Source of the DNA: Actinomycetota bacterium
GTDB taxonomy: Bacteria > Actinomycetota > Acidimicrobiia > Actinomarinales > Actinomarinaceae
Assembly: GCA_014384285.1 (NCBI GenBank)
Contig: JACNGE010000014.1
Location: forward strand, 72,427-136,426
Length of the DNA stretch: 64,000 nt
Direction of reading: 5' to 3'
Numbering within the stretch: position 1 is the first letter of the stretch; each line of letters opens with the position of its first letter. Shown here piece after piece: positions 652 through 58,362 of this stretch. The notes under the pieces were generated by a model, which saw only the letters and a list, made by a program, of their open reading frames with translations, was not told where the DNA came from and made no database searches. The position numbers and the translations under genes were made by a program.

Positions 652-986
652 TAAATAAAGTTTGCAGCTGCTCTTTCAAACATGACAATTGCAAATAAGA
701 TGAGTGCTAGAATCATCCCACCTGTAAAGAATTTATTTATTAATGAATTTTCAAATCTTAGATGCATAAACCAGCCAACAACGATGACAAATTTTCCAAC
801 AGCTAAAATTATCAGCAATGGATCAGTAAACACTCCTACGATATCTTCGGTGTAATAAAGAGCAACTTCAATCGCAGTGAGGACACCTAAAACAAGAGCT
901 ATTTGAACATACTGAGTAGGTTTTGGATGGGGTTTGTGATCAACCGACATCAGATTAAGTAAACCACAGTAAATAGAACAATCCAA
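651..986 (-). CDS. ctaF: Cytochrome c oxidase subunit IV, Bacillus-type small subunit (COX4_pro-like)
   Basis: 111 aa with 3 TM segments, following ctaE in the same orientation. Size and position match Bacillus CtaF (about 110 aa). Confidence 0.55.
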   Translation of the reverse strand: MDCSIYCGLLNLMSVDHKPHPKPTQYVQIALVLGVLTAIEVALYYTEDIVGVFTDPLLIILAVGKFVIVVGWFMHLRFENSLINKFFTGGMILALILFAIVMFERAAANFI

Positions 987-1549
987 ACAATATCAACAAA
1001 GTGCCAATACAAAGCTACAAACTCAAGGTTCATTCCACCATCTAAAGAGAGACCTTTTTGTCTTTGTCCAATACTCCAGAGAGCTAGCAATAGAACTACA
1101 CCAATAAATACATGTAATCCGTGGAAACCAGTCAAAACATAAAAAGTTGAACTAAAAATATTTGAGGAGAGCTCAAAACCCTTATGATAAAATTCTGTAA
1201 ATTCATAAATTTGCCCGGCAAGAAATACTGCTCCTAACATAGCTGTAGCTAGTAGCCAAACTCTTGTTTTTTCCTGATCATTACTTTCTAAAGCATTGTG
1301 AGCGAGGACCATTGTTAAAGAACTCATCAACAAAACAAAAGAACTAACAGATGTGAACGGAATATCATAAACATCTGTAAGTTTAATTCCTGGAAAATCT
1401 CTACCTTTGAAGATCATGAATGTTGTAATTAATGTTCCAAAGAAAAGTATCTCTGTAGATAAAAATATCCACATTCCTAGTTTTCTAGTTTCAACTCCTG
1501 TAGGTTCATGAGGATATGAATGAGAGTCACTCATTTTCACCATCTCCAA
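950..1549 (-). CDS. ctaE: Cytochrome c oxidase subunit III
   Basis: 199 aa heme-copper oxidase subunit III. It carries the conserved C-terminal WHFVDIVWIVLF motif and 5 TM helices. Confidence 0.9.
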   Translation of the reverse strand: MEMVKMSDSHSYPHEPTGVETRKLGMWIFLSTEILFFGTLITTFMIFKGRDFPGIKLTDVYDIPFTSVSSFVLLMSSLTMVLAHNALESNDQEKTRVWLLATAMLGAVFLAGQIYEFTEFYHKGFELSSNIFSSTFYVLTGFHGLHVFIGVVLLLALWSIGQRQKGLSLDGGMNLEFVALYWHFVDIVWIVLFTVVYLI

Positions 1550-3488
1550 TGAATTCTTCCTCTAAAGGCTCAGTTCCCCATCCAAAGCTGCCAATGAGAA
1601 TTAGAAGTGTGCCAACAATTGCAAGAGGAAGCATTTTGTAAATTACAGCATATCCTAGAAACGGAAGACCCGAAGCTAAGATAATTGGAAAATAAGATGG
1701 ATTTGGAAGAACTATATCTTCTTTTGGATTCAAGCCTTCTTCTTCGAGTTCTAGCATTAATGCATCAGCAGAATCTTTTCTAACAGGTCTACCATCTTCA
1801 TCTTCATCGTATTTCATATGCCAAAAGTCATCGAGTGATTTCACTTCTGGAGCTTTGGAAAAGTTCCAGACAGGAGTGGGTGAGGGAATACTCCATTCAA
1901 TAGTCCGTGCATCCCATGGGTCAAATCCAGCATCTGGACCTTTTCTTCTGGAATAAATCCAGTTAGCCATGAAGACCAGTATTGAGAGAGCAATTATGAA
2001 TGCACCGATAGAGACAATAAGATTCCAAAAACCCAAATTTGTTTCTTCAGCATACACCCAAGTTCTCCTTACCTGTCCCTGCAGACCAAGCCAATGCATC
2101 GGACCAAAGGTAAGATTAAAACCAATTATCATTAGCCAAAAATGTATTTTTCCAAGTGCTTCGTTATACATTTTTCCCCATACTTTAGGAAACCAGTAAT
2201 AAAGACCAGAAAAAATACCAAACATAGCGCCACCGAAGAGAACATAATGGAAGTGTGCAACAACATAGTATGTATCAGTTTGCTGGGTATCTGCTGGAAC
2301 AATTGAGTGAGTCACTCCACTTAGACCACCAATAACAAACATACCAATAAACCCTAGGGAAAAGAGCATAGGGGTATTTAATTTTAATTTTCCTCCCCAA
2401 ATGGTTCCTAGCCAGTTAAATATTTTGACACCAGTAGGAACAGCAATGACCATTGTCGACAAACCAAAGCCTGCCTGTGCTACAGGACTTATAGCTGATG
2501 CAAACATATGGTGGGCCCAAACACCAAAACCAATAAAAGCTATACCAAATCCTGCAAAGACTATTGCTGGATAACCAAAGAGCGGCTTTCTAGAAAAAGT
2601 TGGTAAAACTTCAGAGACAATCCCAAAAGCAGGAAGTATTAGTATATATACTTCGGGGTGTCCAAATAACCAAAATAGATGTTGCCACAAAATCGGATCT
2701 CCGCCGCCCTCTGTTAAAAAGAATGTTGTACCAAACTGTCTATCAAATGTGACATAAAAGAGCGCTATTGCAATTATTGGAAGGGAAAACGCTAATAAAA
2801 AGGAAACAGCAAATGTCATCCATGTAAATACTGGCATCCTCATTAATCGCATACCTTTTGTTCTCATATTTAATATCGTCGTAATGAAGTTAAATGCTGA
2901 TACTAATGAAGCAATTCCAAGAATCTGAAGACCTATTGCCCAGTAATCCATAGCTGTTCCTGGAGAGTATTTAAACCCAGCATTAGGTTGATATCCAAAC
3001 CAACCACCATTAGGAGCAGAGCCTAATCTACTGACTTCTTCAGCTAGATAACCACCTTGGGGTGCTCCTGCTGTACCAAACAAAAAAGTTGAGTACAGAA
3101 AGACTCCACCAAAAATGAAAATCCAGAAAGAAAGCGCGTTTAGTCTTGGGAAAGCTACATCTCTTGCACCAATTTGCAGAGGTAGAAGATAGTTAAAGAA
3201 GGCGGCACTAATCGGCATAATCGCCAAAAATATCATTGTTGTTCCATGCATTGTAAACATGGCGTTATATTCAGCAGCACTTAAAAAGTTATTGTCTGGT
3301 GAAGCAAGTTGAATTCTTAGCAGTAGAGCTTCTAATCCACCTACAAGTAAAAAGAAGAATGCTGCGTATCCGTACATTATACCTATTCGTTTGTGGTCAA
3401 CGGTTGTTATCCAGCTCCAGATGCCTGTTTCGGAAGAAGGCCTTTTAAAAATATTTGATTGTTTTCTTGGTTCAATAATTTTTGTCAT
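1527..3488 (-). CDS. ctaD: Cytochrome c oxidase subunit I (heme-copper oxidase catalytic subunit) with a C-terminal 2-TM extension
   Basis: 653 aa with classic subunit I motifs (WFFGHPEVYILILPAFG, HHMF, His ligands) and 12 or more TM helices. It overlaps ctaC and ctaE by a few nt. Confidence 0.95.
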   Translation of the reverse strand: MTKIIEPRKQSNIFKRPSSETGIWSWITTVDHKRIGIMYGYAAFFFLLVGGLEALLLRIQLASPDNNFLSAAEYNAMFTMHGTTMIFLAIMPISAAFFNYLLPLQIGARDVAFPRLNALSFWIFIFGGVFLYSTFLFGTAGAPQGGYLAEEVSRLGSAPNGGWFGYQPNAGFKYSPGTAMDYWAIGLQILGIASLVSAFNFITTILNMRTKGMRLMRMPVFTWMTFAVSFLLAFSLPIIAIALFYVTFDRQFGTTFFLTEGGGDPILWQHLFWLFGHPEVYILILPAFGIVSEVLPTFSRKPLFGYPAIVFAGFGIAFIGFGVWAHHMFASAISPVAQAGFGLSTMVIAVPTGVKIFNWLGTIWGGKLKLNTPMLFSLGFIGMFVIGGLSGVTHSIVPADTQQTDTYYVVAHFHYVLFGGAMFGIFSGLYYWFPKVWGKMYNEALGKIHFWLMIIGFNLTFGPMHWLGLQGQVRRTWVYAEETNLGFWNLIVSIGAFIIALSILVFMANWIYSRRKGPDAGFDPWDARTIEWSIPSPTPVWNFSKAPEVKSLDDFWHMKYDEDEDGRPVRKDSADALMLELEEEGLNPKEDIVLPNPSYFPIILASGLPFLGYAVIYKMLPLAIVGTLLILIGSFGWGTEPLEEEFIGDGENE

Positions 3489-4501
3489 TTAAGTGTTCCC
3501 AAATAAGCAATTAGCGCATTAATTTCTTTCTCAGTTAATTCTAGATTAGGCATGAAGGTACCTGGTTTTATTTCAGCAGGATTTGCAAGCCACTTAGTAA
3601 GATTCTCTGGATTATTTTTTAGCGCAGCTCCAGCAAAAACACTTCTGTTTGCAAAGTGTGTAAGATTAGGAGCAATTCGATCACCTTGTACATCCCATAC
3701 ACCATCAATCACATGACACTGGGTACAACCTGCGTTTAAATACACAACTTGACCTTCGGCAGCTAATGAAGATTCTGGCAATTCTTTTTGAGCGTACGAT
3801 TGTTCATTTGCAACCCATGAGGCAAAATCTTCCTCTGTCATTGAAATAACCCTTCCTCGCATTTTTGAATGGCTCAGTCCACAATATTCTCCACATTGAG
3901 CCCAAAATTCTTCAGGAGAATCTGCTTGTAGATTTAGATATGTTGTTTGACCAGGTACAAGATATCTTTTTCCATTTAATTTAGGAACCCAATAATTGTG
4001 CAAAACATCATTTGACCACATTTCAAGCCTTACAGGCCTGTCTTCTGGGATAACTAAAACATTTGCAGTAGTAATTCCAAAGTCTGGATACTTATATTCA
4101 AACCACCATTGATGTCCAATTACTTCAATTTTTAAAGCATCTTCTGGCTCCCTAGCAAGGTCAAAAATTGTTCTAACAGTAGGCACTGCAATTACTGCCA
4201 AAATTAATACTGGAATAATTGTCCAAAGAATTTCTAGAAAATTGTTTCCGTGAATTTGTTTTGGTTCAGGACTGCTTTCTCTTTCTTTAAAGTAAAAAAC
4301 TGAAAAAAGAAGCGCCCCTTGTACTATCGCAAAAACACCAACTGCAATCCAAAAAGTAAGCCAAAAGAGTTCATCTATACTTCTTGCATAGGGCCCAGCT
4401 GGACTTAAGGAGTCAAGCGGAGCATCTTCTATACACGAAGACAAGAAAAGAAAGCTCAGCAAAAAAATTTTTTTATCTTTAAATAATTTCATCTCAAACA
4501 A
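3485..4501 (-). CDS. ctaC: Cytochrome c oxidase subunit II, caa3-type, with a fused C-terminal cytochrome c domain
   Basis: 338 aa with a signal peptide/lipobox-like N-terminus and 2 TM. It has the CuA-region motifs (HNYWVPKL; CGEYCGLSHSKM) and a C-terminal CTQCH heme c binding site. Confidence 0.9.
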   Translation of the reverse strand: MFEMKLFKDKKIFLLSFLFLSSCIEDAPLDSLSPAGPYARSIDELFWLTFWIAVGVFAIVQGALLFSVFYFKERESSPEPKQIHGNNFLEILWTIIPVLILAVIAVPTVRTIFDLAREPEDALKIEVIGHQWWFEYKYPDFGITTANVLVIPEDRPVRLEMWSNDVLHNYWVPKLNGKRYLVPGQTTYLNLQADSPEEFWAQCGEYCGLSHSKMRGRVISMTEEDFASWVANEQSYAQKELPESSLAAEGQVVYLNAGCTQCHVIDGVWDVQGDRIAPNLTHFANRSVFAGAALKNNPENLTKWLANPAEIKPGTFMPNLELTEKEINALIAYLGTLK

Positions 4502-4556
4502 TCCTTTAGGATAGCGTTCAAACTATATATAGTGTAATCATAAGTAGTATGAGTTA

Positions 4557-5444
4557 ATGTTATCAAATAAAATTTCTTTGGTAAAAAAATTTGTAAAACT
4601 CTCAAAACTTAGAGTTGTAGAACTTTTACTGGTCACGACAGTACCTGGTATGATTGTGTCCCTTTACTCAATGCCTCCTCTAACTCTTGTACTATCCACA
4701 CTAGCTGGGGGAACCTTATTGGCTGTTAGTGCAAACGTAATGAATCAGGTGTTTGAAATTGAAAGAGACAAACTAATGCAAAGAACCTCTGACAGACCAT
4801 TAGTAACTGGAGAGCTAACTAGAGCTACTGGAATAGTTTTTTCTGTACTGACTGGAATAATTGGATTTATTGTCTTATATTTACTAACAACTCCAACGGC
4901 AGCTTACATAGGACTTATTGCAAATCAGTTTTACATATTTATTTACACATTAATTCTTAAGCCCAGAACAAATCAAAATATTGTCATTGGCGGTGCAGCA
5001 GGAGCAGCACCAGTTCTAATTGGATGGACGGCAACCGGGAGCACTTTAGATATAGGTGCCTGGTTATTATTTCTATTAGTTTTTATGTGGACTCCAGCAC
5101 ATTTTTGGGCGCTATCAATTGAAAATAAAACAGATTATGAGCAGGCCGATTTTCCAATGCTTCCAACTCAGGAAACTTATGAAAGGTCAACAATATATAT
5201 TGCTATATACTCTTGTGCAACAGTGTTGATTTCAATTGCAGCAGCACCAGTTCTTCAACTCGGAATTATCTATTTGTTAATTGCAGTATTTCTTGGGACG
5301 AATTTAATGTTTAAATCCTATAACCTTTATAAGAAAAGAATCCAACCTATTAAATATTTTGTCTTTTCAAATACATATCTAGCTGTTATATTTCTAGGAA
5401 TAGTTGCAGATATAATGTGGACTTTAAGGGGAGTTGCCGTATGA
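4557..5444 (+). CDS. ctaB: Protoheme IX farnesyltransferase (heme O synthase), UbiA family
   Basis: 295 aa polytopic UbiA-fold protein, divergent from the cta oxidase operon. It carries the typical CyoE/CtaB signatures. Confidence 0.9.
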   Translation: MLSNKISLVKKFVKLSKLRVVELLLVTTVPGMIVSLYSMPPLTLVLSTLAGGTLLAVSANVMNQVFEIERDKLMQRTSDRPLVTGELTRATGIVFSVLTGIIGFIVLYLLTTPTAAYIGLIANQFYIFIYTLILKPRTNQNIVIGGAAGAAPVLIGWTATGSTLDIGAWLLFLLVFMWTPAHFWALSIENKTDYEQADFPMLPTQETYERSTIYIAIYSCATVLISIAAAPVLQLGIIYLLIAVFLGTNLMFKSYNLYKKRIQPIKYFVFSNTYLAVIFLGIVADIMWTLRGVAV

Positions 5445-13308: not shown

Positions 13309-13403
13309 TGGCGGAGGTGGACGGGAATCGAACCCGCCAAAGACTTTTACACCTTTCACCAGTTTTGAAGACCGGGGAGCCCACCAGGCGCTCATTCACC
13401 TCC
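13309..13403 (-). tRNA. 95-nt long-variable-arm tRNA with anticodon UCA. It would decode UGA, so it is a tRNA-Sec (selC) candidate or a Ser-type opal suppressor.
   Basis: Reverse complement: GGAGGTGA-AT-GAGC-GCCTGGTGG-GCTC-C-CCGGT-CTTCAAA-ACTGG-(21-nt variable arm)-GCGGG-TTCGATT-CCCGT-CCACCTCC-G-CCA. The anticodon loop CUUCAAA gives U33, anticodon UCA, A37. The discriminator is G73 and CCA is encoded. There are 8 nt between the T-stem and the discriminator, the 8/5 layout typical of tRNA-Sec, and the loop is identical to the E. coli selC anticodon loop. Confidence 0.7.
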
Positions 13404-13455: not shown

Positions 13456-14052
13456 ATGGAAAACTTTTCATCATTATTTTTAAGACTTAAAAAAGAAAGA
13501 GGATTGTCTAACAAGCAAATAGCCTCTTTCACTGGTGCAGAATTAAAAGAAGTAAAAAAATGGGACGCTGGTACAAGTTTTCCAACAGACAAAAAAGTAA
13601 TTATTGCACTCGAGGGTTTATTAGGAAAAGAGGTAATGGATACACTTGAAGACTTATCTAGTTATAACCAAGTAACAACTAACTCAAACGATGTAGAGGA
13701 TTCACTATTTAAAATTGATAAAGATAAAAAGGTAGATTTAAAGTCAGGCATCTTTAATCGATTTAAGTCAGAAAAACAGGAGACTAAAGAGATTCCTCAA
13801 CCCGAACTATTCAGGTATGAAAATATCGAAGATTCACAAAATCTTGAAGAACTCGAAGCTAACACACAAAAAGAAATCTTTGAAACTGCCTTGGATGAAA
13901 GACCCTACATTGAAGATTCAAAACAATTAGGTTTTTATCTGACAAGGAATGTCAAAACCTTTTTGGGGTTAATTTTTATTACTGTGTTAATCACTCGCGG
14001 ATTTAGGTTATTCCTGGACTCTATCAAAATGATAATAGATAACTTATTGTGA
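13456..14052 (+). CDS. HTH (XRE-like) domain protein with an acidic linker and a C-terminal transmembrane anchor
   Basis: 198 aa. The N-terminus has a helix-turn-helix (LRLKKERGLSNKQIASFTG...), followed by an acidic low-complexity linker and a single C-terminal TM (FLGLIFITVLITRGF). Its stop overlaps the ctaA start. Confidence 0.4.
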   Translation: MENFSSLFLRLKKERGLSNKQIASFTGAELKEVKKWDAGTSFPTDKKVIIALEGLLGKEVMDTLEDLSSYNQVTTNSNDVEDSLFKIDKDKKVDLKSGIFNRFKSEKQETKEIPQPELFRYENIEDSQNLEELEANTQKEIFETALDERPYIEDSKQLGFYLTRNVKTFLGLIFITVLITRGFRLFLDSIKMIIDNLL

Positions 14053-14951
14053 CACTATATAAACTGAGTGGAGCAGGATTAGGACTCTCAGTCTTGTCGA
14101 TAATAGCTGGAGCAATAGTTAGAGCTACTGGTTCCGGAGATGGGTGTGGATCTTCTTGGCCAAGTTGTAATGGGCGAATCATACCTTCTCTTAATTCAGC
14201 TGCAGAGCAAATTGAGTTTTCCCATCGTGCCATCAGTGGATTGTTGCTAATCATCACACTTGCTATTTTTCTAAAATCCTTTAGTCCGTCAGTAAATGGG
14301 GTTCAAAAAAAAGTTATTAATTACCTCACTTTTTTTGTAATATTTGAAGCCCTGATAGGAGCTGTAATAGTGTTATATGAGTGGGTTGGATTAAATAGCT
14401 CCATACCTAGGGTTATTGCTGTACCCCTTCATCTGGTAAATACTTTTGGATTGCTTGCTATGTATACTGTAATTTTTAAACTATCAAAAAATTCTGAGAA
14501 ACGGATTATAAACTTAATTGATAGAAATTTTAAAATAGTCACATTTTTATTTATTCTAGCTGGAGCGACAGGGTCAATAGCTGCACTTGCAGATGTATTG
14601 TTCCCCAGCGAGTCATTTGTTAGTGGTCTAGTAGATGACTTTGATACTACTTCAGCTCTACTAACAAGACTAAGGGTTCTACATCCGCTAGCTTCAACAG
14701 TTTTATCTATTTTACTTTTTCTTGAATCAAACAGGCTTCAAAATTTTTTCAATATAAAAACTTTTGAAATAAAATCCTTAGTTATTTTGGGCGTAGCATT
14801 AGGTACATTGAATGTACTTATGAATATAAATATTTTTTTAAGTGTAATACATCTATTGATAGCAGATCTACTTTGGATTACATATATATACAAAAGTTTG
14901 GAAAAAAGTTATCAATTTGAAATAAGAACAAATAATTCCACTATCGATTAG
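14049..14951 (+). CDS. ctaA: Heme A synthase (COX15/CtaA family)
   Basis: 300 aa polytopic protein with the N-terminal Cys pair in loop 1 (GDGCGSSWPSC) and conserved His residues in TM helices. Confidence 0.75.
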   Translation: MTLYKLSGAGLGLSVLSIIAGAIVRATGSGDGCGSSWPSCNGRIIPSLNSAAEQIEFSHRAISGLLLIITLAIFLKSFSPSVNGVQKKVINYLTFFVIFEALIGAVIVLYEWVGLNSSIPRVIAVPLHLVNTFGLLAMYTVIFKLSKNSEKRIINLIDRNFKIVTFLFILAGATGSIAALADVLFPSESFVSGLVDDFDTTSALLTRLRVLHPLASTVLSILLFLESNRLQNFFNIKTFEIKSLVILGVALGTLNVLMNINIFLSVIHLLIADLLWITYIYKSLEKSYQFEIRTNNSTID

Positions 14952-18885: not shown

Positions 18886-19651
18886 TTTTGAGTATTTTGA
18901 GGGTAATAAACCCTTAATAATACCGCACAGAGGCGGATCTAACATTGTGCCTGAAAATACAAAACATGGACTTGAATTCATATCAGAAGAAGGCTTTACA
19001 CATTTTGAAACAGATTTAAGAATGTCTAAAGATGGAGAAATATTCCTACATCATGACGACTCCTTTGATCGAACAACTGACGTCAAGGGTAAAGTAAGAG
19101 ATTTCAATTGGAATGATATCTCAAAAATAAATGCAGGATTCCAGTTTTATAAACAAAAGGGTTTTCATAATATGCAAACAAATTTTATACGTTTAGCTGA
19201 TGCTCTTGAGTTCAATAAAGATTTGAAGTTTAATTTAGATTTGAAACAATCTGGCATGGCTACGCATGTTGCTGAAATTATATTTTCATTAAAAGCAGAA
19301 AAGAGAGTATTAGTATCTTCTTTCAGCCCAAAACGACTTGATGAATTTTTGAATGTAACAAAAGGAAAAATTTTATCATCTGGAACCTTTAGGGAAAACG
19401 CTATTGGAAAGTTTTTACCAAACAAAGTTAGGAATCTTAAAGTTCAAGCTTTACAATCTCCATACACCTGGAGGGGCCTTCAGATTCATTCCAAAAAATT
19501 ATGGGAATTTTGCAAGTTAAATAACCTCCAACTTCATATATGGACTGTCAATACACTAGAAAAATTTCAACACTGCCTTGATATCGGCTGTGATGGAGTG
19601 ATAACGGACGAGCCAATAATGCTTAGAAATTACCTTAATTCGAAAAGTTAA
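18872..19651 (+). CDS. Glycerophosphodiester phosphodiesterase (GDPD family)
   Basis: 259 aa with the N-terminal LIIPHRGGS...ENT catalytic His/Arg/Glu block of GDPD enzymes. Confidence 0.75.
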   Translation: MFLVNFEYFEGNKPLIIPHRGGSNIVPENTKHGLEFISEEGFTHFETDLRMSKDGEIFLHHDDSFDRTTDVKGKVRDFNWNDISKINAGFQFYKQKGFHNMQTNFIRLADALEFNKDLKFNLDLKQSGMATHVAEIIFSLKAEKRVLVSSFSPKRLDEFLNVTKGKILSSGTFRENAIGKFLPNKVRNLKVQALQSPYTWRGLQIHSKKLWEFCKLNNLQLHIWTVNTLEKFQHCLDIGCDGVITDEPIMLRNYLNSKS

Positions 19652-21141
19652 ATTGTATTATTCTCAATAAATTTCTTTGCTTCTGAAAATATGTGTTTTT
19701 TTCTCACTGGGTCAAGCCTGTCTAATGAGCGAGTCAAAAGTGACAATCTTGGATTAGATTGGTAAAAGTCTCTATTTTTTTCTGTGAAGCTCCAGTAAAG
19801 CCCATCTAGTGTGTCACACCAATCACCTCTTTTATAATCACTCATCTTGAGAATATAGTTTGAACCACATGTATAAGGCTTTGTTGACATTAGCCCTCCG
19901 TCAGCATAAGTTGCCATGCCAAACACATTTGGTACCATAACCCATTCTGAGGAGTCAATATACATTTCCATGAACCATTTGTAAATTTCTCTAGGATTCA
20001 CACCACAAAGATTCATGATATTGCTTATAACCATAAGTCTTGGGATATGGTGTATGTACCCATCTTCAAGTGTGGTTTTGATGCAATCATCAAGTGGGAC
20101 AATTCCTGTTGTTCCGTCATACCACGATGAGGCCAGCTTTTTCTTATTACCCCAATAGTTACTGTTTAACTGATTAAGACCTTCCTCTTGGTAGATACCC
20201 CTCACAAATTCTCTCCACCCAATAATCTGACGAATAAAACCCTCAAGTGAATTTAGAGGAATTGAGTTTTTATCTGCATACTGAACAGCTTTATCGATGA
20301 CTTCTGTTGGTGTAATTAAACCAATATTAAGAAATGGACTAATACAGCTATGGAATAAAAAATTTTGCTCTTGTTGCATCGCATCTTCATATCTTCCAAA
20401 ATTCTCAAATCTACTTTTTAAAAACTCATCAAGCTGTTTCAATGCGCCTTTTCGAGTTACAGGGAACCATATTTTTTCTAAACTGCCTGGATGATCGTTA
20501 AACTTAGTAGATATTATTTGCTTAACACTTTTATGGTGGCTTGACACCTCAGGTTGGAGTAGCTCAGGGATAATTGTATTTTTAGGAATTTTTTTTCTAT
20601 TTTCCTCATCAAATGACCATTTTCCTCCTACGGGCTTATTTTCTTTATCCACCAATAGTCCAAGTTCTTTTCTAGCTTTTTGATAAAAAGATGCCATCCT
20701 ATATACTTTTTTCCCTTTAGCCATAGCTTTAAAGCTATCTCTATCGAATATGAACATAGGAGTTTTGTATATTTCAATATCTATATCTGCTTTTGATATA
20801 GTGTCAAGAAATACTTTTTCAAAAGACTTATCTTCAATTTCAAATATATTTATTTTTTTAATATTTTTTGAAGCAAGGAATTTAAGTAAAAAAGATATAT
20901 AATCATCTGAGTCATCTCGTTGATCAAGTTTGTAATAGTTGGTTTTTATTGATTTTTTAATAAGTTCATTGTTATATTCCCGCATTGCAGCTAAAAATAA
21001 GTAAATTTTGGATTTATGGTATTTGAAAGTAGTACACAATCCTTGATCTTCAGCCATAAATACTTCATGACATCCATTTTGAATCAAATAATCTGGTTCA
21101 AATAGCTGATTTCCTAGTATTACAAAAAAATTACTCTGCAT
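19648..21141 (-). CDS. Cryptochrome/photolyase family protein (FeS-BCP / COG3046, photolyase-related)
   Basis: 497 aa. The C-terminal FAD-binding region has the WREF motif (RQIIGWREFVRGIY) and several Cys residues (CGVN, TCGS, DWCD) consistent with FeS-BCP proteins. Confidence 0.65.
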   Translation of the reverse strand: MQSNFFVILGNQLFEPDYLIQNGCHEVFMAEDQGLCTTFKYHKSKIYLFLAAMREYNNELIKKSIKTNYYKLDQRDDSDDYISFLLKFLASKNIKKINIFEIEDKSFEKVFLDTISKADIDIEIYKTPMFIFDRDSFKAMAKGKKVYRMASFYQKARKELGLLVDKENKPVGGKWSFDEENRKKIPKNTIIPELLQPEVSSHHKSVKQIISTKFNDHPGSLEKIWFPVTRKGALKQLDEFLKSRFENFGRYEDAMQQEQNFLFHSCISPFLNIGLITPTEVIDKAVQYADKNSIPLNSLEGFIRQIIGWREFVRGIYQEEGLNQLNSNYWGNKKKLASSWYDGTTGIVPLDDCIKTTLEDGYIHHIPRLMVISNIMNLCGVNPREIYKWFMEMYIDSSEWVMVPNVFGMATYADGGLMSTKPYTCGSNYILKMSDYKRGDWCDTLDGLYWSFTEKNRDFYQSNPRLSLLTRSLDRLDPVRKKHIFSEAKKFIENNTI

Positions 21142-21155
21142 CTATCTATAACTTA

Positions 21156-21197
21156 GTTAACATTAAAAATAATAAGAAAGTACATTTTAATGTAAAC
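21156..21197. promoter_or_regulatory. 13-bp imperfect inverted repeat (GTTAACATTAAAA-N16-TTTTAATGTAAAC) in the divergent photolyase/IDO promoter region
   Basis: 12 of 13 positions are complementary between the arms. It is centred in the 68-bp intergenic region between divergent genes and overlaps a TTTAAT -10-like hexamer for the IDO gene. Confidence 0.45.
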
Positions 21198-21209
21198 ATA
21201 GGGGGGACA

Positions 21210-22328
21210 ATGAACTTAGAATTACTTAATCGTGGATTTATTCCTGAAGAAATTTGCTTAAACCTTCCTGACACATTCTCAGACGTCGAGCAGCTAGCAT
21301 TAGAGCTGCCTAAAGTCTTAGCTAATGAACAAATCGAAAGCAGAGTTTTACGACTTGAGGTTGAAAAAAATGTCGATGATTTAACAGTACCTCAACTAGA
21401 GAGGGCAATGCTGGTCTATTCGTACATCGGCCATGCTTTTATGTGGGGAAAAAAGAATGATTTAAATGTAATACCACCTCAGATTGCTAAAACATGGCAT
21501 AAAATTTCAACAAAATTAGAGAGACCACCCATTCTTTCTTATGCATCCTATGCACTGAACAATTGGAAAATGCTTGACTCTTCCCAACCGTTCGATCTAG
21601 AAAATATAGTTATAGTACAGAATTTCTTAGGTGGTGTTGATGAAGATTGGTTCATCATGATTCATGTAGCGATAGAATACGAGGCGAAAGAAATATTATC
21701 AGCACTAAAAAAATATTTTTTTGACTCTGGTGTGGCTACAGATCTCGAGGACGCCTTGCAAAGTATAAAAAAAATTAACCATACTATGAATCGAATGCCT
21801 GAAAAGTGTGACCCTTTCATTTACTACAACCGCGTAAGACCATATATCTTCGGATGGAAGAACAACCCAACAACACCTGAGGGAGTTATTTACGAAGGAG
21901 TTGATGAATATGATGGGAAGCCGCAGATATTTAGAGGGGAAACAGGAGCTCAAAGTTCAATTGTCCCAATGTTAGATGCTTTATTAGGGGTGACTCACTC
22001 TGATGATCCATTAAAAGAATATCTTGATGAAATGAGGCTATACATGCCCAAAGAACATAGAGATTTATTAAATGAATTAGATTCTTGGTCACAAACTGAG
22101 AGAAGTGCAACACTTGATTCAATAAGCAACGAAGATAAAAATCTAATAGACGAAATTATTAAAGAGGTTCATATATTTAGAAGTAAGCATTTGGAGTATG
22201 CGAGAATTTACATTTATGAACAGTCACTAACTAATGATTCAAATTCAAATATTGTTGGAACTGGTGGCACACCGTTCATGAAATATCTTGATAAACACCT
22301 TCAGGAGACAGTCCCTACGAATGATTAA
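21210..22328 (+). CDS. Indoleamine 2,3-dioxygenase (IDO) family heme dioxygenase homologue
   Basis: 372 aa. It carries the IDO signature blocks FRGETGAQSSIVPMLDALLGV (compare human IDO1 GGSAGQSSVFQCFDVLLGI), SKHLEYARIYI (proximal His region) and GTGGTPFMKYL (compare GTGGTDLMNFL). Confidence 0.65.
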   Translation: MNLELLNRGFIPEEICLNLPDTFSDVEQLALELPKVLANEQIESRVLRLEVEKNVDDLTVPQLERAMLVYSYIGHAFMWGKKNDLNVIPPQIAKTWHKISTKLERPPILSYASYALNNWKMLDSSQPFDLENIVIVQNFLGGVDEDWFIMIHVAIEYEAKEILSALKKYFFDSGVATDLEDALQSIKKINHTMNRMPEKCDPFIYYNRVRPYIFGWKNNPTTPEGVIYEGVDEYDGKPQIFRGETGAQSSIVPMLDALLGVTHSDDPLKEYLDEMRLYMPKEHRDLLNELDSWSQTERSATLDSISNEDKNLIDEIIKEVHIFRSKHLEYARIYIYEQSLTNDSNSNIVGTGGTPFMKYLDKHLQETVPTND

Positions 22329-23424
22329 AAAACTCGGCATCCCAAAAGAAGTTAAAAAAGATGAGGGAAGAGTTAGTTTAATTCCTGAACATATAACTCA
22401 ATTTACTGGTTTGGCTGATATTTTTGTAGAAACAAATGCTGGGCTAGGTTCAGGTTTCACCGACGAAGATTACCAATCTGCGGGTGCAAAAATTGTACCC
22501 ACAGCACAGGAGCTATATGATATTTCAGAAATTATTTGTAAGGTAAAAGAACCTCAGGAACAAGAATACGAACTCCTCACGTCCTCACATGTAATATTTG
22601 GTTATCTTCATTTAGCTTCAAATCTTTCACTAACAAAAATGTTATTAGAAAAAAAGCTGACAGCTATTGCGACTGAAATGATAATGGACGAAAATGAGTA
22701 TCCATTGTTAATACCAATGTCAAAAATCGCTGGCAACCTAGCTATCCAAAAAGGTATGCAATTTTTAGAGTATTCATCTGAAGGTAAGGGCCTGCTTTTG
22801 TCTTCAATTTCAGATGAAAGGAATTCAAAAGTTACAGTTATTGGTTGTGGAGAAGTTGGTAGAAGTTCTATTCACAAGTCTGTTCAAATTGGTGCATCAG
22901 TAACAGCAATTGATGTAAACGAAAATATTTTGAATGAATTAAAAAATAAATATGGGGAAGATATCTCCACCCATATAAGTGGAAGTGATGATGCCATCGC
23001 TGCAATTAGAACTGCAGATTTAGTAGTTGGTGCAGTCTTATTACCAGGCAGGAAGCCACCTATCGTAATTACGCAAGAGGACATCAACCAAATGGAAAAA
23101 GGATCTGTAATTATTGACGTAGCTATTGATCAGGGTGGTTGTGTTGAAGGAGTAACTGCAAATACACATAGTGAACCATTTGAAATCAGAAATGGTGTAA
23201 TAGTATCTGCTATTGCAAATCTCCCAGGTGCAGTACCTAAAACTTCATCCATTGAGTTATCTACAAATATGCAAAAATTTGTAGACTATCTCTTAATTGA
23301 AAATTGGTTTGAGGAATACAATAAAAATCAAAATCTCAAACCGTCTTTACAGATACATAATGGTCTTTTACTTTCAGAAGAGGTTGCAGAAAGCCTAAGT
23401 TTATCTTTGTCTAAACTAGTTTAG
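22321..23424 (+). CDS. ald: Alanine dehydrogenase
   Basis: AlaDH/PNT family with an N-terminal MIKKLGIPKEVKKDEGRVSLIPEH and a GCGEVG NAD(H) Rossmann motif. ATG 22321 overlaps the upstream stop (ATGATTAA). The ORF-track start at 22288 is probably too far upstream. Confidence 0.9.
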   Translation: MIKKLGIPKEVKKDEGRVSLIPEHITQFTGLADIFVETNAGLGSGFTDEDYQSAGAKIVPTAQELYDISEIICKVKEPQEQEYELLTSSHVIFGYLHLASNLSLTKMLLEKKLTAIATEMIMDENEYPLLIPMSKIAGNLAIQKGMQFLEYSSEGKGLLLSSISDERNSKVTVIGCGEVGRSSIHKSVQIGASVTAIDVNENILNELKNKYGEDISTHISGSDDAIAAIRTADLVVGAVLLPGRKPPIVITQEDINQMEKGSVIIDVAIDQGGCVEGVTANTHSEPFEIRNGVIVSAIANLPGAVPKTSSIELSTNMQKFVDYLLIENWFEEYNKNQNLKPSLQIHNGLLLSEEVAESLSLSLSKLV

Positions 23425-25429: not shown

Positions 25430-26731
25430 TTAATCCATAGTGATGTTTTTTGTTTTATTGATTAATTTTTGAGATAAAAGTTTAGGTGCGGTCAAAAAAA
25501 GAATAAACATGAATATTCCACAAATTAGAAAAGGAAATCTTAATGCAAATTCTCTGGAAAAAGAATTTTCCATTATTTTTACTACAAAACCACCAAATAA
25601 GGCCCCTAGAGGGGTTAATCCAAGGGCTAGCAATCTATAAACACTGTTAACTCTACCCATTAATTTATCTGGAATTAGAGCCTGTCTTATTGATACCGCT
25701 TGAACATTCCAAAGAACACTTCCAAAGCTTGTAACTCCAAAAGCAGCAGCCACAACAAAAGAATTCGAAGTGATAAAAGGTACAAAGCCCCCTATTCCAA
25801 ATAAAGCGATTGAAATTAGTAATGTTTTAGATTCTTCTAACCTTTTGTTAATTTTTTCAGCAAGAAGGCTTCCTACAAAACCTCCAACAGCTCCACCATA
25901 TGCCAAAAAAGCAAATTGAACAGAATCCAACCCCAGTATCTCTTGACCAAATAAAATCATTATTGGAAACTGCATTGAACCAAAGAAGTTTGCAATTCCA
26001 GTATAAATTGCAAGACGACGAAGAAGAATTTGATTACTTAACCAACTAACCCCTTCCTTAATTAGATTAATTGTTTTTTGGTTGTCAATATCCTTTTTGG
26101 GTCTATCAAAATCACCTTTTATTGCAGTAATAAAGAAAACAGACAAAAGCAATAGAAGTGTATCGAAAATAAACGGGGTAACTAAACTAAGACCAATTAA
26201 AAAACCTGCAATTGGTGCGCCTAGAAAATTATTCGCAACCAACTCAATACCAAACAGTCTTCCATTTGATTTAGGTAAATCATCTTTTGAAACAACTTGA
26301 GGTAAAAAAGATTGGGCAGCGTTATCTCTTGTAACCTCGAGCATTCCAAAAATAAATGCACCAATATAGAAAGCTGTTATTAATAAGAATTTTCTGTTGA
26401 ACTCTGGCTCAACAATCGGCACATTTTTTGGAATGAAATCTAAGTTAAAATAAATAAGAAATATAAATGACGAAGTAAGTAGCACTTGAAAAATTCTTGA
26501 AAAAATTAAGATACTTTTTCTATTGAACTTATCTGCAATTACACCTGCAAACAAAACAAATATCAACTGTGGAAGTGTTACTAAAACTGTCATTAAAGAA
26601 ATTAATAATGGATCTCGAGTTATTAGTGAAAAAAGCCAAGGGTATGCAAAACCAGCTATTCCATCAGCTAAATTACTAAATGCCGAAGCAGTTAAAAGTA
26701 AATTAAAATTTTTTTTTGATTCTTTTTTCAT
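25430..26731 (-). CDS. MFS transporter
   Basis: 433 aa with 12 predicted TM helices and the MFS fold pattern. Confidence 0.7.
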   Translation of the reverse strand: MKKESKKNFNLLLTASAFSNLADGIAGFAYPWLFSLITRDPLLISLMTVLVTLPQLIFVLFAGVIADKFNRKSILIFSRIFQVLLTSSFIFLIYFNLDFIPKNVPIVEPEFNRKFLLITAFYIGAFIFGMLEVTRDNAAQSFLPQVVSKDDLPKSNGRLFGIELVANNFLGAPIAGFLIGLSLVTPFIFDTLLLLLSVFFITAIKGDFDRPKKDIDNQKTINLIKEGVSWLSNQILLRRLAIYTGIANFFGSMQFPIMILFGQEILGLDSVQFAFLAYGGAVGGFVGSLLAEKINKRLEESKTLLISIALFGIGGFVPFITSNSFVVAAAFGVTSFGSVLWNVQAVSIRQALIPDKLMGRVNSVYRLLALGLTPLGALFGGFVVKIMENSFSREFALRFPFLICGIFMFILFLTAPKLLSQKLINKTKNITMD

Positions 26732-38889: not shown

Positions 38890-38956
38890 TATCTTGCATG
38901 AAGAGAGGGTAACCTCAGCAACCTAGAAAGCAAACAAAGGTGCTAGAGATGCGGTT
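38890..38956 (+). promoter_or_regulatory. SAM-riboswitch-like aptamer (SAM-I/SAM-IV superfamily core blocks) in the metK leader
   Basis: GCATGAAGAGAGGGTAACCTCAGCAACC...AAGGTGCTAGAGATGCGG is homologous, block by block, to a second element upstream of metY. It has AAGAGAGG after P1, a short hairpin followed by CAGCAACC, an AAGGTGC block and a GAGATG P1 3' strand. A U6 tract and a CCUUCC anti-SD-like run follow, upstream of the AAGGAG SD. Confidence 0.6.
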
Positions 38957-39013
38957 TTTTAAAACAAAAAATATGCTACCTTCCTTCATAAACATTTTAA
39001 GTAAGGAGAGCTT

Positions 39014-40102
39014 ATGAATAAATTAGTCACTGCTGAAACAGTCTCACCAGGGCATCCAGACAAGATAGCAGATTTAATCTCTGACTACGTTTTAACTCAA
39101 GCACTAGAAAACAACAGTTCTTCAAAAGTTGCAGTTGAAACTTTTTTAACTGGAACAAAAAATGGTGGGTTGGTACTCGTTGGAGGAGAGATTAGCGAAA
39201 TCGCAAATATCTCTACAGAAGATATTAATGACATTGTAAAAATGGCTTTAGATAAAACAATCAAAACTAGTTTTGAAGACTTTGATTTAGACAAACTTTC
39301 CATATATAACGAACTTACCCCACAATCCGAAGAAATAAGAGCGGCTGTTGAAGATGATAAAAATCAAGGAGCTGGAGATCAGGGAATCATGGTTGGTTAT
39401 GCAACCAACAGAACCAAGTCATTCATGCCTGTTACGTTTGATAAATCAAGGAATATTCAAAAAAGCTTATGGGACCTACAAAATGCTGACTCAATGCTTG
39501 ATCTCGATTCAAAAGTTCAAGTCACAAGTGGAGGTGATAAAACCAAAGTAGTTTTTTCAACACAACATCAAGTGGGTATTGATCTAGAAAATTTACACGA
39601 AAAAGTTACTGAGATTGTTTCACAACACATTTCAGAAGATTTCATTCTAGATTTAAATCCTTCAGGCTCTTTTGTAAAAGGTGGACCAGCAGGAGACACT
39701 GGTCTTACAGGCCGAAAGATTGTTGTTGACGCATATGGACCTTCAGTTCCTGTGGGAGGAGGAGCTTTTTCTGGAAAAGATCCTAGCAAAGTTGACAGGT
39801 CAGCAGCTTATGCCGCCAGACACCTATCTAAAAATATTGTTGCACACGATTTAGCTGATAGGTGCCAAGTTAGGGTTGCTTATGCGATTGGTAAAGCAGA
39901 CCCTTATGAGTTATCTGTTGACACATTTGGCACAGAAAAAAAAGAGTCAAATGTGCTCAATGATTTTATTACAAAGTTTGATATGAGACCTGCTGCAATT
40001 ATTGAGAGATTAAGTCTATTAAATGTGGACTATAGAACAGATACACTATTTTCTCATTTTGGCCATGACGATCGTAACTGGGAAAAAATAGAAAATTTCT
40101 AG
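39014..40102 (+). CDS. metK: S-adenosylmethionine synthetase
   Basis: 362 aa with the N-terminal ETVSPGHPDKIADLISD block and the C-terminal GGGAFSGKDPSKVDRSAAYAAR glycine-rich loop. Confidence 0.9.
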   Translation: MNKLVTAETVSPGHPDKIADLISDYVLTQALENNSSSKVAVETFLTGTKNGGLVLVGGEISEIANISTEDINDIVKMALDKTIKTSFEDFDLDKLSIYNELTPQSEEIRAAVEDDKNQGAGDQGIMVGYATNRTKSFMPVTFDKSRNIQKSLWDLQNADSMLDLDSKVQVTSGGDKTKVVFSTQHQVGIDLENLHEKVTEIVSQHISEDFILDLNPSGSFVKGGPAGDTGLTGRKIVVDAYGPSVPVGGGAFSGKDPSKVDRSAAYAARHLSKNIVAHDLADRCQVRVAYAIGKADPYELSVDTFGTEKKESNVLNDFITKFDMRPAAIIERLSLLNVDYRTDTLFSHFGHDDRNWEKIENF

Positions 40103-40133
40103 AAACAAATAAAAAGACTGATATAATTTAAAT

Positions 40134-40200
40134 ATACATTAAGAGAAGGTTAAGACCTCAGCAACCTGGATGACTCTCCAAGGTGCTTGAAGATGTGGCA
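40134..40200 (+). promoter_or_regulatory. SAM-riboswitch-like aptamer in the metY-metX leader
   Basis: ACATTAAGAGAAGGTTAAGACCTCAGCAACCTGGATGACTCTCCAAGGTGCTTGAAGATGTGG is a paralogue of the metK leader element. A TATAAT -10 box lies at 40122..40127 just upstream, and a CCCTCTCC anti-SD lies downstream near the GGAGA SD. Confidence 0.6.
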
Positions 40201-40249
40201 GAAATGCAACTAACTAGTCAAAACCCTCTCCAACTTAAAGGAGAAACAT

Positions 40250-41530
40250 ATGAAATACGAATCAAAACTACTACATGCAGGTTGGGATTCTGATGCTGAT
40301 TCAGAGGGCTCAATTACCGTGCCAATTTATAAAACTACAGCTTATCAATTTAATAATACTGAGCACGCTGCAAACTTGTTTGGATTAAAAGAATTTGGAA
40401 ACATTTACTCTAGACTTGGAAACCCAACAGTTGGGGCTCTTGAAGCTAGATTAACTGCTTTAGAGGATGGAGCAATGTGTGTGGCATTAGCATCTGGGAC
40501 ATCTGCCGTAATGTATTCATTAATTAATATTATGAGCCAGGGTGACAACTTTGTTACAGCTAGTCAACTATATGGTGGAACATACACAATGTTTGATAAT
40601 ATTTTGCCAGAGTATGGAATTAATGCAAAAAAAGTAGATATAACTGATCTAAAAGCTGTTGAAGATCAAATAGATGAAAAGACAAGAGCAGTCTACTGTG
40701 AGACAGTAACTAACCCAGGACTTGTAGTTGCAGATGTATCAGCACTTTCAGAAATCGCACACAAACATGGCATACCTTTGATTGTTGATGCAACATTTAC
40801 AACATCTGCCCTTCAAAAGTCTTTTGATTTTGGAGCAGATATTGTTGTATATTCACTTACAAAGTGGATGTCAGGTCACGGAAGAGTTATAGCAGGAGCC
40901 GTGATAGAAAAAGGTGGTTTCGATTGGGGAAATGGAAACTTTCCACTTTATGACAAACCAGATACTAGCTATGGCGGCATGCGCTGGGGCCATGATCTTG
41001 GTGACCTTAGTAATGTCGCATATTCTTTAAGGTTAAGAACAGTTCCGCTTAGAAACTTAGGAGCCAATATGTCACCTGACACCGCTTTTGAAGTTATGTC
41101 AGGACTTGAAACCCTTAGTCTAAGAATGGAAAGACATTGTAGTAATGCAAATAAAGCTGCAGAGTTTTTATCCAACCATGACTTAGTTGAATGGGTCAGG
41201 TTTCCCGGACTAAAGGATGATCCATCACATGAATTATCCAAAAAATATCTTAACGGTACTGGTGGAACTATGGTTGTTTTTGGTATCAAGGGTGGAAAAG
41301 AGGCTGGTCAAAAGTTTATCGATAACCTTAAGATGTTTAGACACGTAGCGAATGTTGGAGATACTAGATCATTAGCAATACATCCTGCTACTACAACTCA
41401 TTCTCAATTAGATGATGAGGCTTTAGTAGCCGCAGGGTCACCGCCAGAACTAGTTAGACTATCTATAGGTATTGAAAACATAGAAGATATTATTGAAGAT
41501 CTTTCGCAGGCACTTGAAAGTTCAAAATAG
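40250..41530 (+). CDS. metY: O-acetylhomoserine aminocarboxypropyltransferase (O-acetylhomoserine sulfhydrylase)
   Basis: 426 aa PLP-dependent Cys/Met metabolism family enzyme with the SLTKWMSGHG PLP-lysine motif. Confidence 0.9.
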   Translation: MKYESKLLHAGWDSDADSEGSITVPIYKTTAYQFNNTEHAANLFGLKEFGNIYSRLGNPTVGALEARLTALEDGAMCVALASGTSAVMYSLINIMSQGDNFVTASQLYGGTYTMFDNILPEYGINAKKVDITDLKAVEDQIDEKTRAVYCETVTNPGLVVADVSALSEIAHKHGIPLIVDATFTTSALQKSFDFGADIVVYSLTKWMSGHGRVIAGAVIEKGGFDWGNGNFPLYDKPDTSYGGMRWGHDLGDLSNVAYSLRLRTVPLRNLGANMSPDTAFEVMSGLETLSLRMERHCSNANKAAEFLSNHDLVEWVRFPGLKDDPSHELSKKYLNGTGGTMVVFGIKGGKEAGQKFIDNLKMFRHVANVGDTRSLAIHPATTTHSQLDDEALVAAGSPPELVRLSIGIENIEDIIEDLSQALESSK

Positions 41531-58274: not shown

Positions 58275-58303
58275 TAAAACCAATTACTAGACAAATAATT
58301 TAA

Positions 58304-58329
58304 TTTAGCCCGACGTGAGTCGGGCTAAA
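58304..58329 (+). terminator. Perfect 11-bp inverted-repeat hairpin between the substrate-binding-protein gene and the ABC ATPase gene. It is an intrinsic terminator or attenuator candidate.
   Basis: TTTAGCCCGAC-GTGA-GTCGGGCTAAA is a GC-rich stem in AT-rich DNA, 30 nt after the BMP stop and followed by an A/T-rich run. The ORF-track GTG start of the next gene sits in the loop and is probably not real. Confidence 0.5.
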
Positions 58330-58362
58330 TTATTAAGATTATATATATTTACAAACTTGAAA

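Follow-up and report, generated by a model that had tools for sequence, protein, structure and literature searches.

In human IDO1, Arg231 and the threonine of the GTGGT loop hold the carboxylate and the ammonium group of tryptophan, and TDO binds tryptophan via a distal histidine. Candidatus Actinomarina, with about 1,200 genes, ranks among the smallest free-living bacteria of the ocean surface and also among the most abundant. Ancestral IDOs may have oxidised a broad range of indoles, according to a review that also describes an IDO-like myoglobin (PMC4191572). In case of the photolyases, a subclade without Fe-S cluster makes up about 30% of the FeS-BCP/DPRP clade, with Prochlorococcus PromaPL as an example that displays weak (6-4) repair activity (bioRxiv 10.1101/366252). 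Here we have analysed a stretch of 64,000 nucleotides from an Actinomarinaceae genome (GenBank assembly GCA_014384285.1, contig JACNGE010000014.1, positions 72,427 to 136,426; referred to below as the window), in which an IDO-family heme dioxygenase gene is followed by the alanine dehydrogenase gene ald and transcribed divergently from a photolyase-family gene. The three genes are as follows:

21210..22328, plus strand: IDO-family heme dioxygenase gene, 372 amino acids, bacterial subfamily with distal histidine
22321..23424, plus strand: alanine dehydrogenase gene ald, its ATG overlapping the last IDO codons and the stop codon by 8 nt (ATGATTAA)
19648..21141, minus strand: prokaryotic (6-4) photolyase family gene (DPRP/FeS-BCP clade, subgroup without Fe-S cluster), 497 amino acids, divergent from the IDO gene

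Our reading of this locus, which we hold to be probable, is that of an operon of an IDO-family heme dioxygenase and an alanine dehydrogenase, next to which the Fe-S-less photolyase gene is a dispensable neighbour and the inverted repeat in the divergent spacer a by-product. The starting point is the assignment of the dioxygenase itself. A preliminary description, made from the letters of the window, had proposed the IDO family on account of three blocks and had named the Pfam profile as the check: PF01231 matches the protein over practically its full length (profile positions 10–409 of 412) with 255 bits, well above the cutoff of 26 (E 1.5e-75), and all three blocks (GETGAQSS...LLGV, the histidine in SKHLEY and GTGGT) are present in this open reading frame (ORF). 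A sequence search of the PDB returned IDO1 (~1e-40) and IDO2 only, the top single match being human IDO1 with the S167H mutation, as a histidine stands at this position in the query too; PrnB, TDO and MarE gave no PDB sequence match even at E≤10, and no sequence or profile similarity to the PrnB family PF08933 was detected. The structural model of the protein is consistent with the two-domain all-helical IDO fold, and structural alignment places this modelled fold clearly nearer to IDO1 than to PrnB, MarE or TDO: the comparison figures were 28.5 for human IDO1, 19.2 for SO4414, 19.0–19.2 for PrnB, 17.5 for IDO2, 9.9 for TDO and 8.4 for MarE. A PrnB-like, TDO or MarE assignment was rejected on both counts, namely the missing sequence similarity and the closer fold of IDO1, and membership in the IDO family can be regarded as secure from the sequence. 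The gene is already labelled IDO in public annotation and the family is well known: at E≤1e-3 it comprises 2,750 clusters (50% identity), bacterial relatives run into the thousands, and named IDO relatives were found in Fimbriimonadales, Armatimonadota, Thermodesulfobacteriota, Acidoferrales, Binatia and Proteobacteria. The nearest relatives outside the Actinomarina clade, likewise named IDO (Fimbriimonadales, Acidoferrales and other lineages), exhibit 45–49% identity, and the IDO of the Actinomarina clade forms a separate cluster at the 50% identity level.

Scanning species-representative genomes with the IDO protein yielded 58 loci, 55 of which belong to Candidatus Actinomarina / OCS155 / Actinomarinales (58–92% identity), and in all 55 the gene occupies the same slot: the common order is sigA – two tldD/pmbA genes – GDPD – (photolyase) – IDO – ald – leuD – leuC – (MFS) – cation antiporter, with brackets marking genes that are present in some loci only. 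These matches place the window in Actinomarina, an ultra-small marine actinobacterium of low G+C content. The 8-nt overlap and the order GDPD – X – IDO – ald – leuD – leuC are found even in the deep-branching clade of Actinomarinales, where identity falls to 58%. In this clade, a 717-residue ORF without Pfam match fills the slot between GDPD and IDO (L048:7772-9925; L061:7789-9942). The MFS transporter gene of the window (25430-26731, minus strand), in the interval between leuC and the antiporter, occurs in only some of the syntenic loci, which represents a small presence/absence polymorphism. Both K00463 and K00259 (ald) are included in the 227 strict single-copy core clusters reported from 84 complete genomes in 'Actinomarina, resolved', where K00463 is annotated merely as 'hypothetical protein' (bioRxiv 10.64898/2026.04.03.716425), and all Actinomarina are reported to be auxotrophic for tryptophan (PMC7771536; bioRxiv 10.64898/2026.04.03.716425). 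On this basis, both IDO and ald would belong to the strict core genome of a tryptophan-auxotrophic organism of ~1.1 Mb. An IDO homologue had initially been considered sporadic in bacteria and unexpected in such a streamlined genome; given the conserved slot in 55 species-representative genomes, the strict-core status and the thousands of bacterial relatives, this view is not supported, and a better label would be 'strict-core, unexplained in a tryptophan auxotroph'. The protein as such is unremarkable for its family and its setting mildly puzzling: that a tryptophan importer should have a tryptophan-oxidising enzyme in its core genome is the one mildly surprising aspect of the locus.

The second gene encodes a protein with the domains AlaDh_PNT_N and AlaDh_PNT_C, which matches alanine dehydrogenases of solved structure (Bacillus-type 8hye) at E 8.6e-80 and keeps the motifs with the catalytic R, K, H and D residues (GRV, KVKEP, YLHLA and DVAIDQGG). 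The longest ORF of ald begins at a TTG at 22288, and homology favours the ATG at 22321. Across the loci of the relatives, the IDO and ald reading frames either overlap by 8 nt or are separated by a 1-nt gap, and the retention of this arrangement argues for co-transcription and translational coupling of the two genes. They would hence constitute a two-gene operon in Candidatus Actinomarina, with the ald product predicted to be an NAD-dependent alanine dehydrogenase.

The active site of the dioxygenase was analysed using an alignment of the query with human IDO1, whose numbering checked out, and with 115 cluster representatives. The query keeps Y126, F163, R231, H346 and GTGGT in human IDO1 numbering, and the position of human S167 is occupied by histidine in 94 of the 117 aligned sequences, the query included. 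The proximal heme ligand, human H346, corresponds to His327 of the RSKHLEY motif: it is present in 116 of the 117 sequences and does not vary among 52 Actinomarina orthologues. The same holds for R208 (human R231), GTGGT at 350-354 (the T379 loop) and GETGAQSS at 243-250, all of which are invariant in these orthologues, in which only 41% of positions are invariant overall. Therefore, the protein is a typical representative of a large IDO subfamily of bacteria whose distal histidine resembles that of TDO. As the contacts for the carboxylate and the ammonium of tryptophan known from human IDO1 are retained, we infer L-tryptophan or a close amino-acid analogue as the substrate: the heme b-dependent dioxygenase most likely inserts O2 across C2–C3 of imported L-tryptophan to yield N-formylkynurenine, and its role may lie in the catabolism or the nitrogen-carbon salvage of scavenged tryptophan.

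Several observations weigh against this reading. The structural model is of moderate confidence (pLDDT 73), and the score of the ald product against NCBIfam TIGR00518 (340.1 bits) lies below the equivalog cutoff of 391.85. The whole 13-kb neighbourhood is syntenic, so that the adjacency of IDO and ald is by itself weak evidence for a functional link. That a cell should break down an amino acid which it is unable to make runs against intuition. Many of the bacterial IDOs assayed by Yuasa et al. in 2011 reportedly displayed poor efficiency with tryptophan, and the S167H variant of human IDO1 falls short of the wild type in activity; a literature search on S167H found no treatment of it. Furthermore, the remaining kynurenine-pathway genes are missing from the vicinity. 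It had been noticed from the outset that ald follows the IDO gene, with no formamidase or kynureninase behind it, and this proved correct for the window in its entirety: no formamidase, kynureninase, KMO or HAAO was found among its ORFs of at least 150 amino acids. All four are also absent from the strict-core list, an absence that is not decisive for the genome, and none of them was found beside any distant relative examined. A bacterial kynurenine cluster, with formamidase and kynureninase adjacent or in the same region, was found neither in the window nor in the contexts of the relatives.

These contexts were diverse: the distant IDO genes stand with a short-chain dehydrogenase gene (in gammaproteobacterial single-cell genomes), with TGT and QueA, with HSP20, by a trp operon or with MarR, and the contexts checked include Fimbriimonadales, Acidoferrales and one other genome. 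Guilt by association in distant relatives was discarded as uninformative, since the contexts vary and contain no kynurenine-pathway gene. We also noted that the gammaproteobacterial IDO with 45% identity (L056:1370-8342; L059:3312-5395) lies either by a convergent block containing trpC/trpD or directly upstream of the short-chain dehydrogenase gene, so that two unrelated lineages have a partner of IDO that is an NAD(P)-dependent dehydrogenase.

It is conceivable, though in our estimation doubtful, that the IDO is the first step of a full but dispersed kynurenine pathway, running through either the anthranilate branch, with alanine for ald, or the quinolinate branch towards de novo NAD. L-alanine, which kynureninase releases, is what the co-translated ald product takes as substrate, so that ald could be placed at the end of an anthranilate branch and would dispose of the alanine provided that the genome encodes a kynureninase at another place; moreover, the genes of a single pathway are often scattered in streamlined genomes. 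Against this stands the lack of K01556, K07130, K00486, nadA and nadB in the strict-core list, and of any of these genes within the window: as the list consists of clusters at 70% identity, absence from it is no proof of absence from the genome.

Less probable still, and in our view unlikely, is a protein that does not serve tryptophan catabolism, but either acts on another indole or aromatic substrate by PrnB- or MarE-like chemistry, or binds or scavenges O2, reactive oxygen species or NO through its heme, as in IDO-like myoglobins. Such a function would explain why a tryptophan auxotroph without kynurenine pathway retains the gene, and it would agree with the lack of kynB and kynU in any context examined, with the typically stand-alone nature of genes of this subfamily, with a distal residue that is His and not Ser, and with the broad indole oxidation and the myoglobin mentioned above (PMC4191572). 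In spite of this, Arg231 and the threonine of GTGGT, which hold tryptophan in human IDO1, are invariant; the distal histidine is the very residue that TDO uses for tryptophan binding; and both the sequence comparisons and the fold lead to IDO1 instead of PrnB, MarE or TDO.

The control of the operon was then considered in the spacer between the two divergent genes, in which the following features were located:

21142..21209, no strand: divergent intergenic spacer, 68 nt, with both predicted promoters inside
21154..21164, plus strand: conserved promoter element TAGTTAACATT (TAGTTTACCATT in most relatives), containing the predicted IDO-ald -35 hexamer at 21157-21162
21181..21186, plus strand: TACATT as the candidate -10 box for IDO-ald, following the -35 hexamer at a distance of 18 nt
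21201..21207, plus strand: strong Shine-Dalgarno sequence GGGGGGA of the IDO gene, with a G-rich/GGAGG block at the same place in all relatives
21150..21155, minus strand: TAAGTT as the candidate -10 box of the photolyase gene, whose ATG follows 8 nt further on, no Shine-Dalgarno sequence
21156..21197, no strand: inverted repeat GTTAACATTAAAA / TTTTAATGTAAAC, arms at 21156-21168 and 21185-21197 of 13 nt each, 12/13 complementary, 16-nt gap

A promoter scan gave TTAACA-18-TACATT on the plus strand and TTTACA-16-TATTAT on the minus strand. IDO-ald would be transcribed from the predicted sigma-70-type promoter, whose -35 region lies in a 12-nt block, TAGTT(T/A)AC(C)ATT. No other part of the spacer shows deep conservation: 47 of the 55 loci have the block 43–58 nt upstream of the IDO ATG, loci that lack the photolyase gene among them, and it is practically absent from the rest of the ~21 kb per locus. 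A search for further members of a regulon using this 12-mer inside the window returned nothing above chance. Downstream of the -35 hexamer, a TAnnnT motif follows at 16–18 nt in about half of the distinct sequences of the relatives, a perfect TATAAT among them. In case of the photolyase gene, 20 of the 24 distinct sequences preceding the orthologues carry TAnnnT upstream of the ATG at a distance of exactly 8 nt, and no Shine-Dalgarno sequence is present, a combination that is the signature of a leaderless mRNA; leaderless mRNAs are common in Actinobacteria, and the photolyase mRNA is probably leaderless or near-leaderless. The -10 box of the photolyase gene would then abut the conserved block. 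As the bases flanking the -35 hexamer are conserved beyond what a -35 region needs, the block leaves room for an additional factor. In a further alternative, which we rate as rather improbable, IDO-ald has a function other than classical tryptophan catabolism (a minimal two-enzyme harvest of nitrogen or reducing power from scavenged tryptophan or kynurenine-type compounds, or a heme-based oxidative-stress or O2 role in a cell of the sunlit surface) and TAGTTTACCATT would be the putative site of a novel regulator or sigma factor.

The inverted repeat had been put forward in the preliminary description as a candidate operator, possibly responsive to light or redox state, and conservation in related genomes as well as copies upstream of other genes had been named as the points to examine. 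The 13-nt repeat is real and does lie within the 68-nt spacer at the proposed position; a conserved operator it is not. Taken as such, the operator would bind a dimeric regulator and place the photolyase gene and IDO-ald under joint control, a situation confined to this species and its closest relative, which we consider very improbable. Its 12/13 complementarity inside a divergent spacer is unlikely to occur by chance when this spacer is taken alone (P 0.0016), which counts against our by-product reading, and the spacer folds with -9.6 kcal/mol (RNA/DNA fold z-score -2.2). Over the whole window, 4 repeats of such quality were observed against a mean of 3.2 in dinucleotide shuffles, and allowing for the ~50 spacers of the window the look-elsewhere probability is ~0.08 by our estimate. 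The comparison of orthologous spacers speaks a clear language: the repeat is identical in the window and in one locus of the closest relative (L001) and is kept only there, L002 retains 9/13 positions, the L003 group 10/13 with an A-to-G change in the left arm that is not compensated in the right arm, and L051 has lost the right arm. Across these close relatives (85–90% protein identity), the left half of the spacer hardly varies and the right arm decays without compensatory change, and the best repeats in 31 other distinct photolyase-IDO spacers reach 0–10 matched bases, the level of shuffled controls. A lack of conservation in related genomes is what the preliminary description itself had named as refuting its proposal, and this outcome was observed. 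Additional copies of the arms, expected upstream of other genes if a regulator used them elsewhere, show no excess in the window (15 matches against 15.1 expected), and a MerR/LitR-type regulator was not found in its 64 kb. The arms instead coincide with the -35-like hexamers TTAACA (plus strand) and TTTACA (minus strand), and the repeat would be a lineage-specific by-product of these two facing hexamers. A hairpin or RNA element was likewise rejected: the fold is weak and, given the start sites placed as above, no single transcript holds both arms. One of the three other 13-nt repeats of the window (58300-58333; TTAATTTAGCCCG / CGGGCTAAATTAT) is situated between genes for a Bmp-family binding protein and an ABC (ATP-binding cassette) ATPase, and resembles a small intra-operon hairpin.

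The divergent orientation of IDO and a cryptochrome/photolyase-family gene, as initially described, was confirmed. The label 'FeS-BCP photolyase-like' given to this gene stands at the level of the family and falls with regard to the Fe-S cluster. Pfam matches were obtained to DPRP PF04244 (2.8e-58) and FAD_binding_7 PF03441, and PDB matches to CryB (1.1e-83), PhrB (3.8e-82) and 9hnk (~1e-83), and the HHI(P/Q)RLM motif is kept, as HHIPRLM in the Actinomarina orthologues. Of the four cysteine ligands of the Fe-S cluster the window protein possesses none: three positions carry P, K and D/E and the fourth is removed by a 10-residue deletion, a state shared by all 46 of the 46 Actinomarina sequences. 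A photolyase without Fe-S cluster fits iron economy in an organism of the oligotrophic ocean. The supposed pairing with IDO is not obligate, as 7 of 54 informative loci lack the photolyase gene and still have IDO-ald and the conserved upstream element: in L025, L040–L043 and L045 GDPD is directly followed by IDO, and in L048 the 717-residue ORF stands in its place. Among the relatives examined outside Actinomarinales, no pairing of IDO and photolyase was found. The photolyase gene is a common but dispensable neighbour of IDO-ald.

Elsewhere in the window, which has a G+C content of 35%, genes for cytochrome oxidase subunits I–III and for the heme O (UbiA/CtaB-type) and heme A (COX15/CtaA) synthases are encoded at 950-5444 and 14049-14951, within 20 kb of IDO, and the cell therefore handles heme. 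A tRNA-Sec gene (13309-13403, minus strand; ARAGORN and Rfam, 75 bits) fits the selenoprotein machinery reported for Actinomarina. Two SAM-I/IV riboswitches are present on the plus strand, one at 38891-38981 before an S-adenosylmethionine synthetase gene (39014-40102) and one at 40131-40223 before a gene for a Cys/Met-metabolism enzyme of the PLP (pyridoxal phosphate) type (40250-41530), the latter being followed by an alpha/beta-hydrolase gene.

With only ~1,200 genes in the genome, each strictly conserved gene should earn its keep. The words dioxygenase and kynurenine do not occur in PMC7771536, in bioRxiv 10.64898/2026.04.03.716425 or in the 2013 description (PMC3747508), and a literature search for IDO in Actinomarina or marine bacterioplankton found nothing. 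A strict-core IDO in a tryptophan importer that three genomic descriptions do not mention therefore represents a gap in the metabolic picture of these bacteria, which concerns the fate of scavenged tryptophan and the reason for tying its oxidation to an alanine dehydrogenase. Whilst the idea of a light-responsive operator has to be given up, the locus poses a modest but testable question of physiology.

Comparison with known systems serves to place the locus. PrnB (PF08933) and Shewanella SO4414 (1ZEE) differ from the Actinomarina protein, with 13–14% identity in structural alignment and no match at the sequence level. TDO/KynA shares the presumed reaction and has a distal histidine like that of the Actinomarina protein, but occurs with kynB-kynU clusters, whilst the Actinomarina IDO has neither kynB nor kynU as neighbours in the 64-kb window. 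In case of the photolyase, PhrB and CryB belong to the same clade (E ~1e-83) and carry a [4Fe-4S] cluster, the ligands of which the Actinomarina protein lacks; PromaPL, of the same DPRP/FeS-BCP clade, is missing the same four cysteine ligands. Human IDO1 (E 1e-40) has in common with our protein the proximal His346, Arg231, Tyr126, Phe163 and the GTGGT loop, and differs from it in length (403 amino acids in comparison to 372), in Ser167, which is replaced by His, in Phe226-Phe227, replaced by Tyr-Tyr, in GGSAGQSS, replaced by GETGAQSS, and in gene context, the gene described here lying in a bacterial operon with ald. Finally, the bacterial IDOs (Yuasa, Ushigoe & Ball 2011, cited in PMC4191572) are prokaryotic members of one and the same family and usually stand-alone genes, whereas the Actinomarina gene, known here from sequence, is a strict-core gene of a tryptophan-auxotrophic host that resides in an operon with ald.

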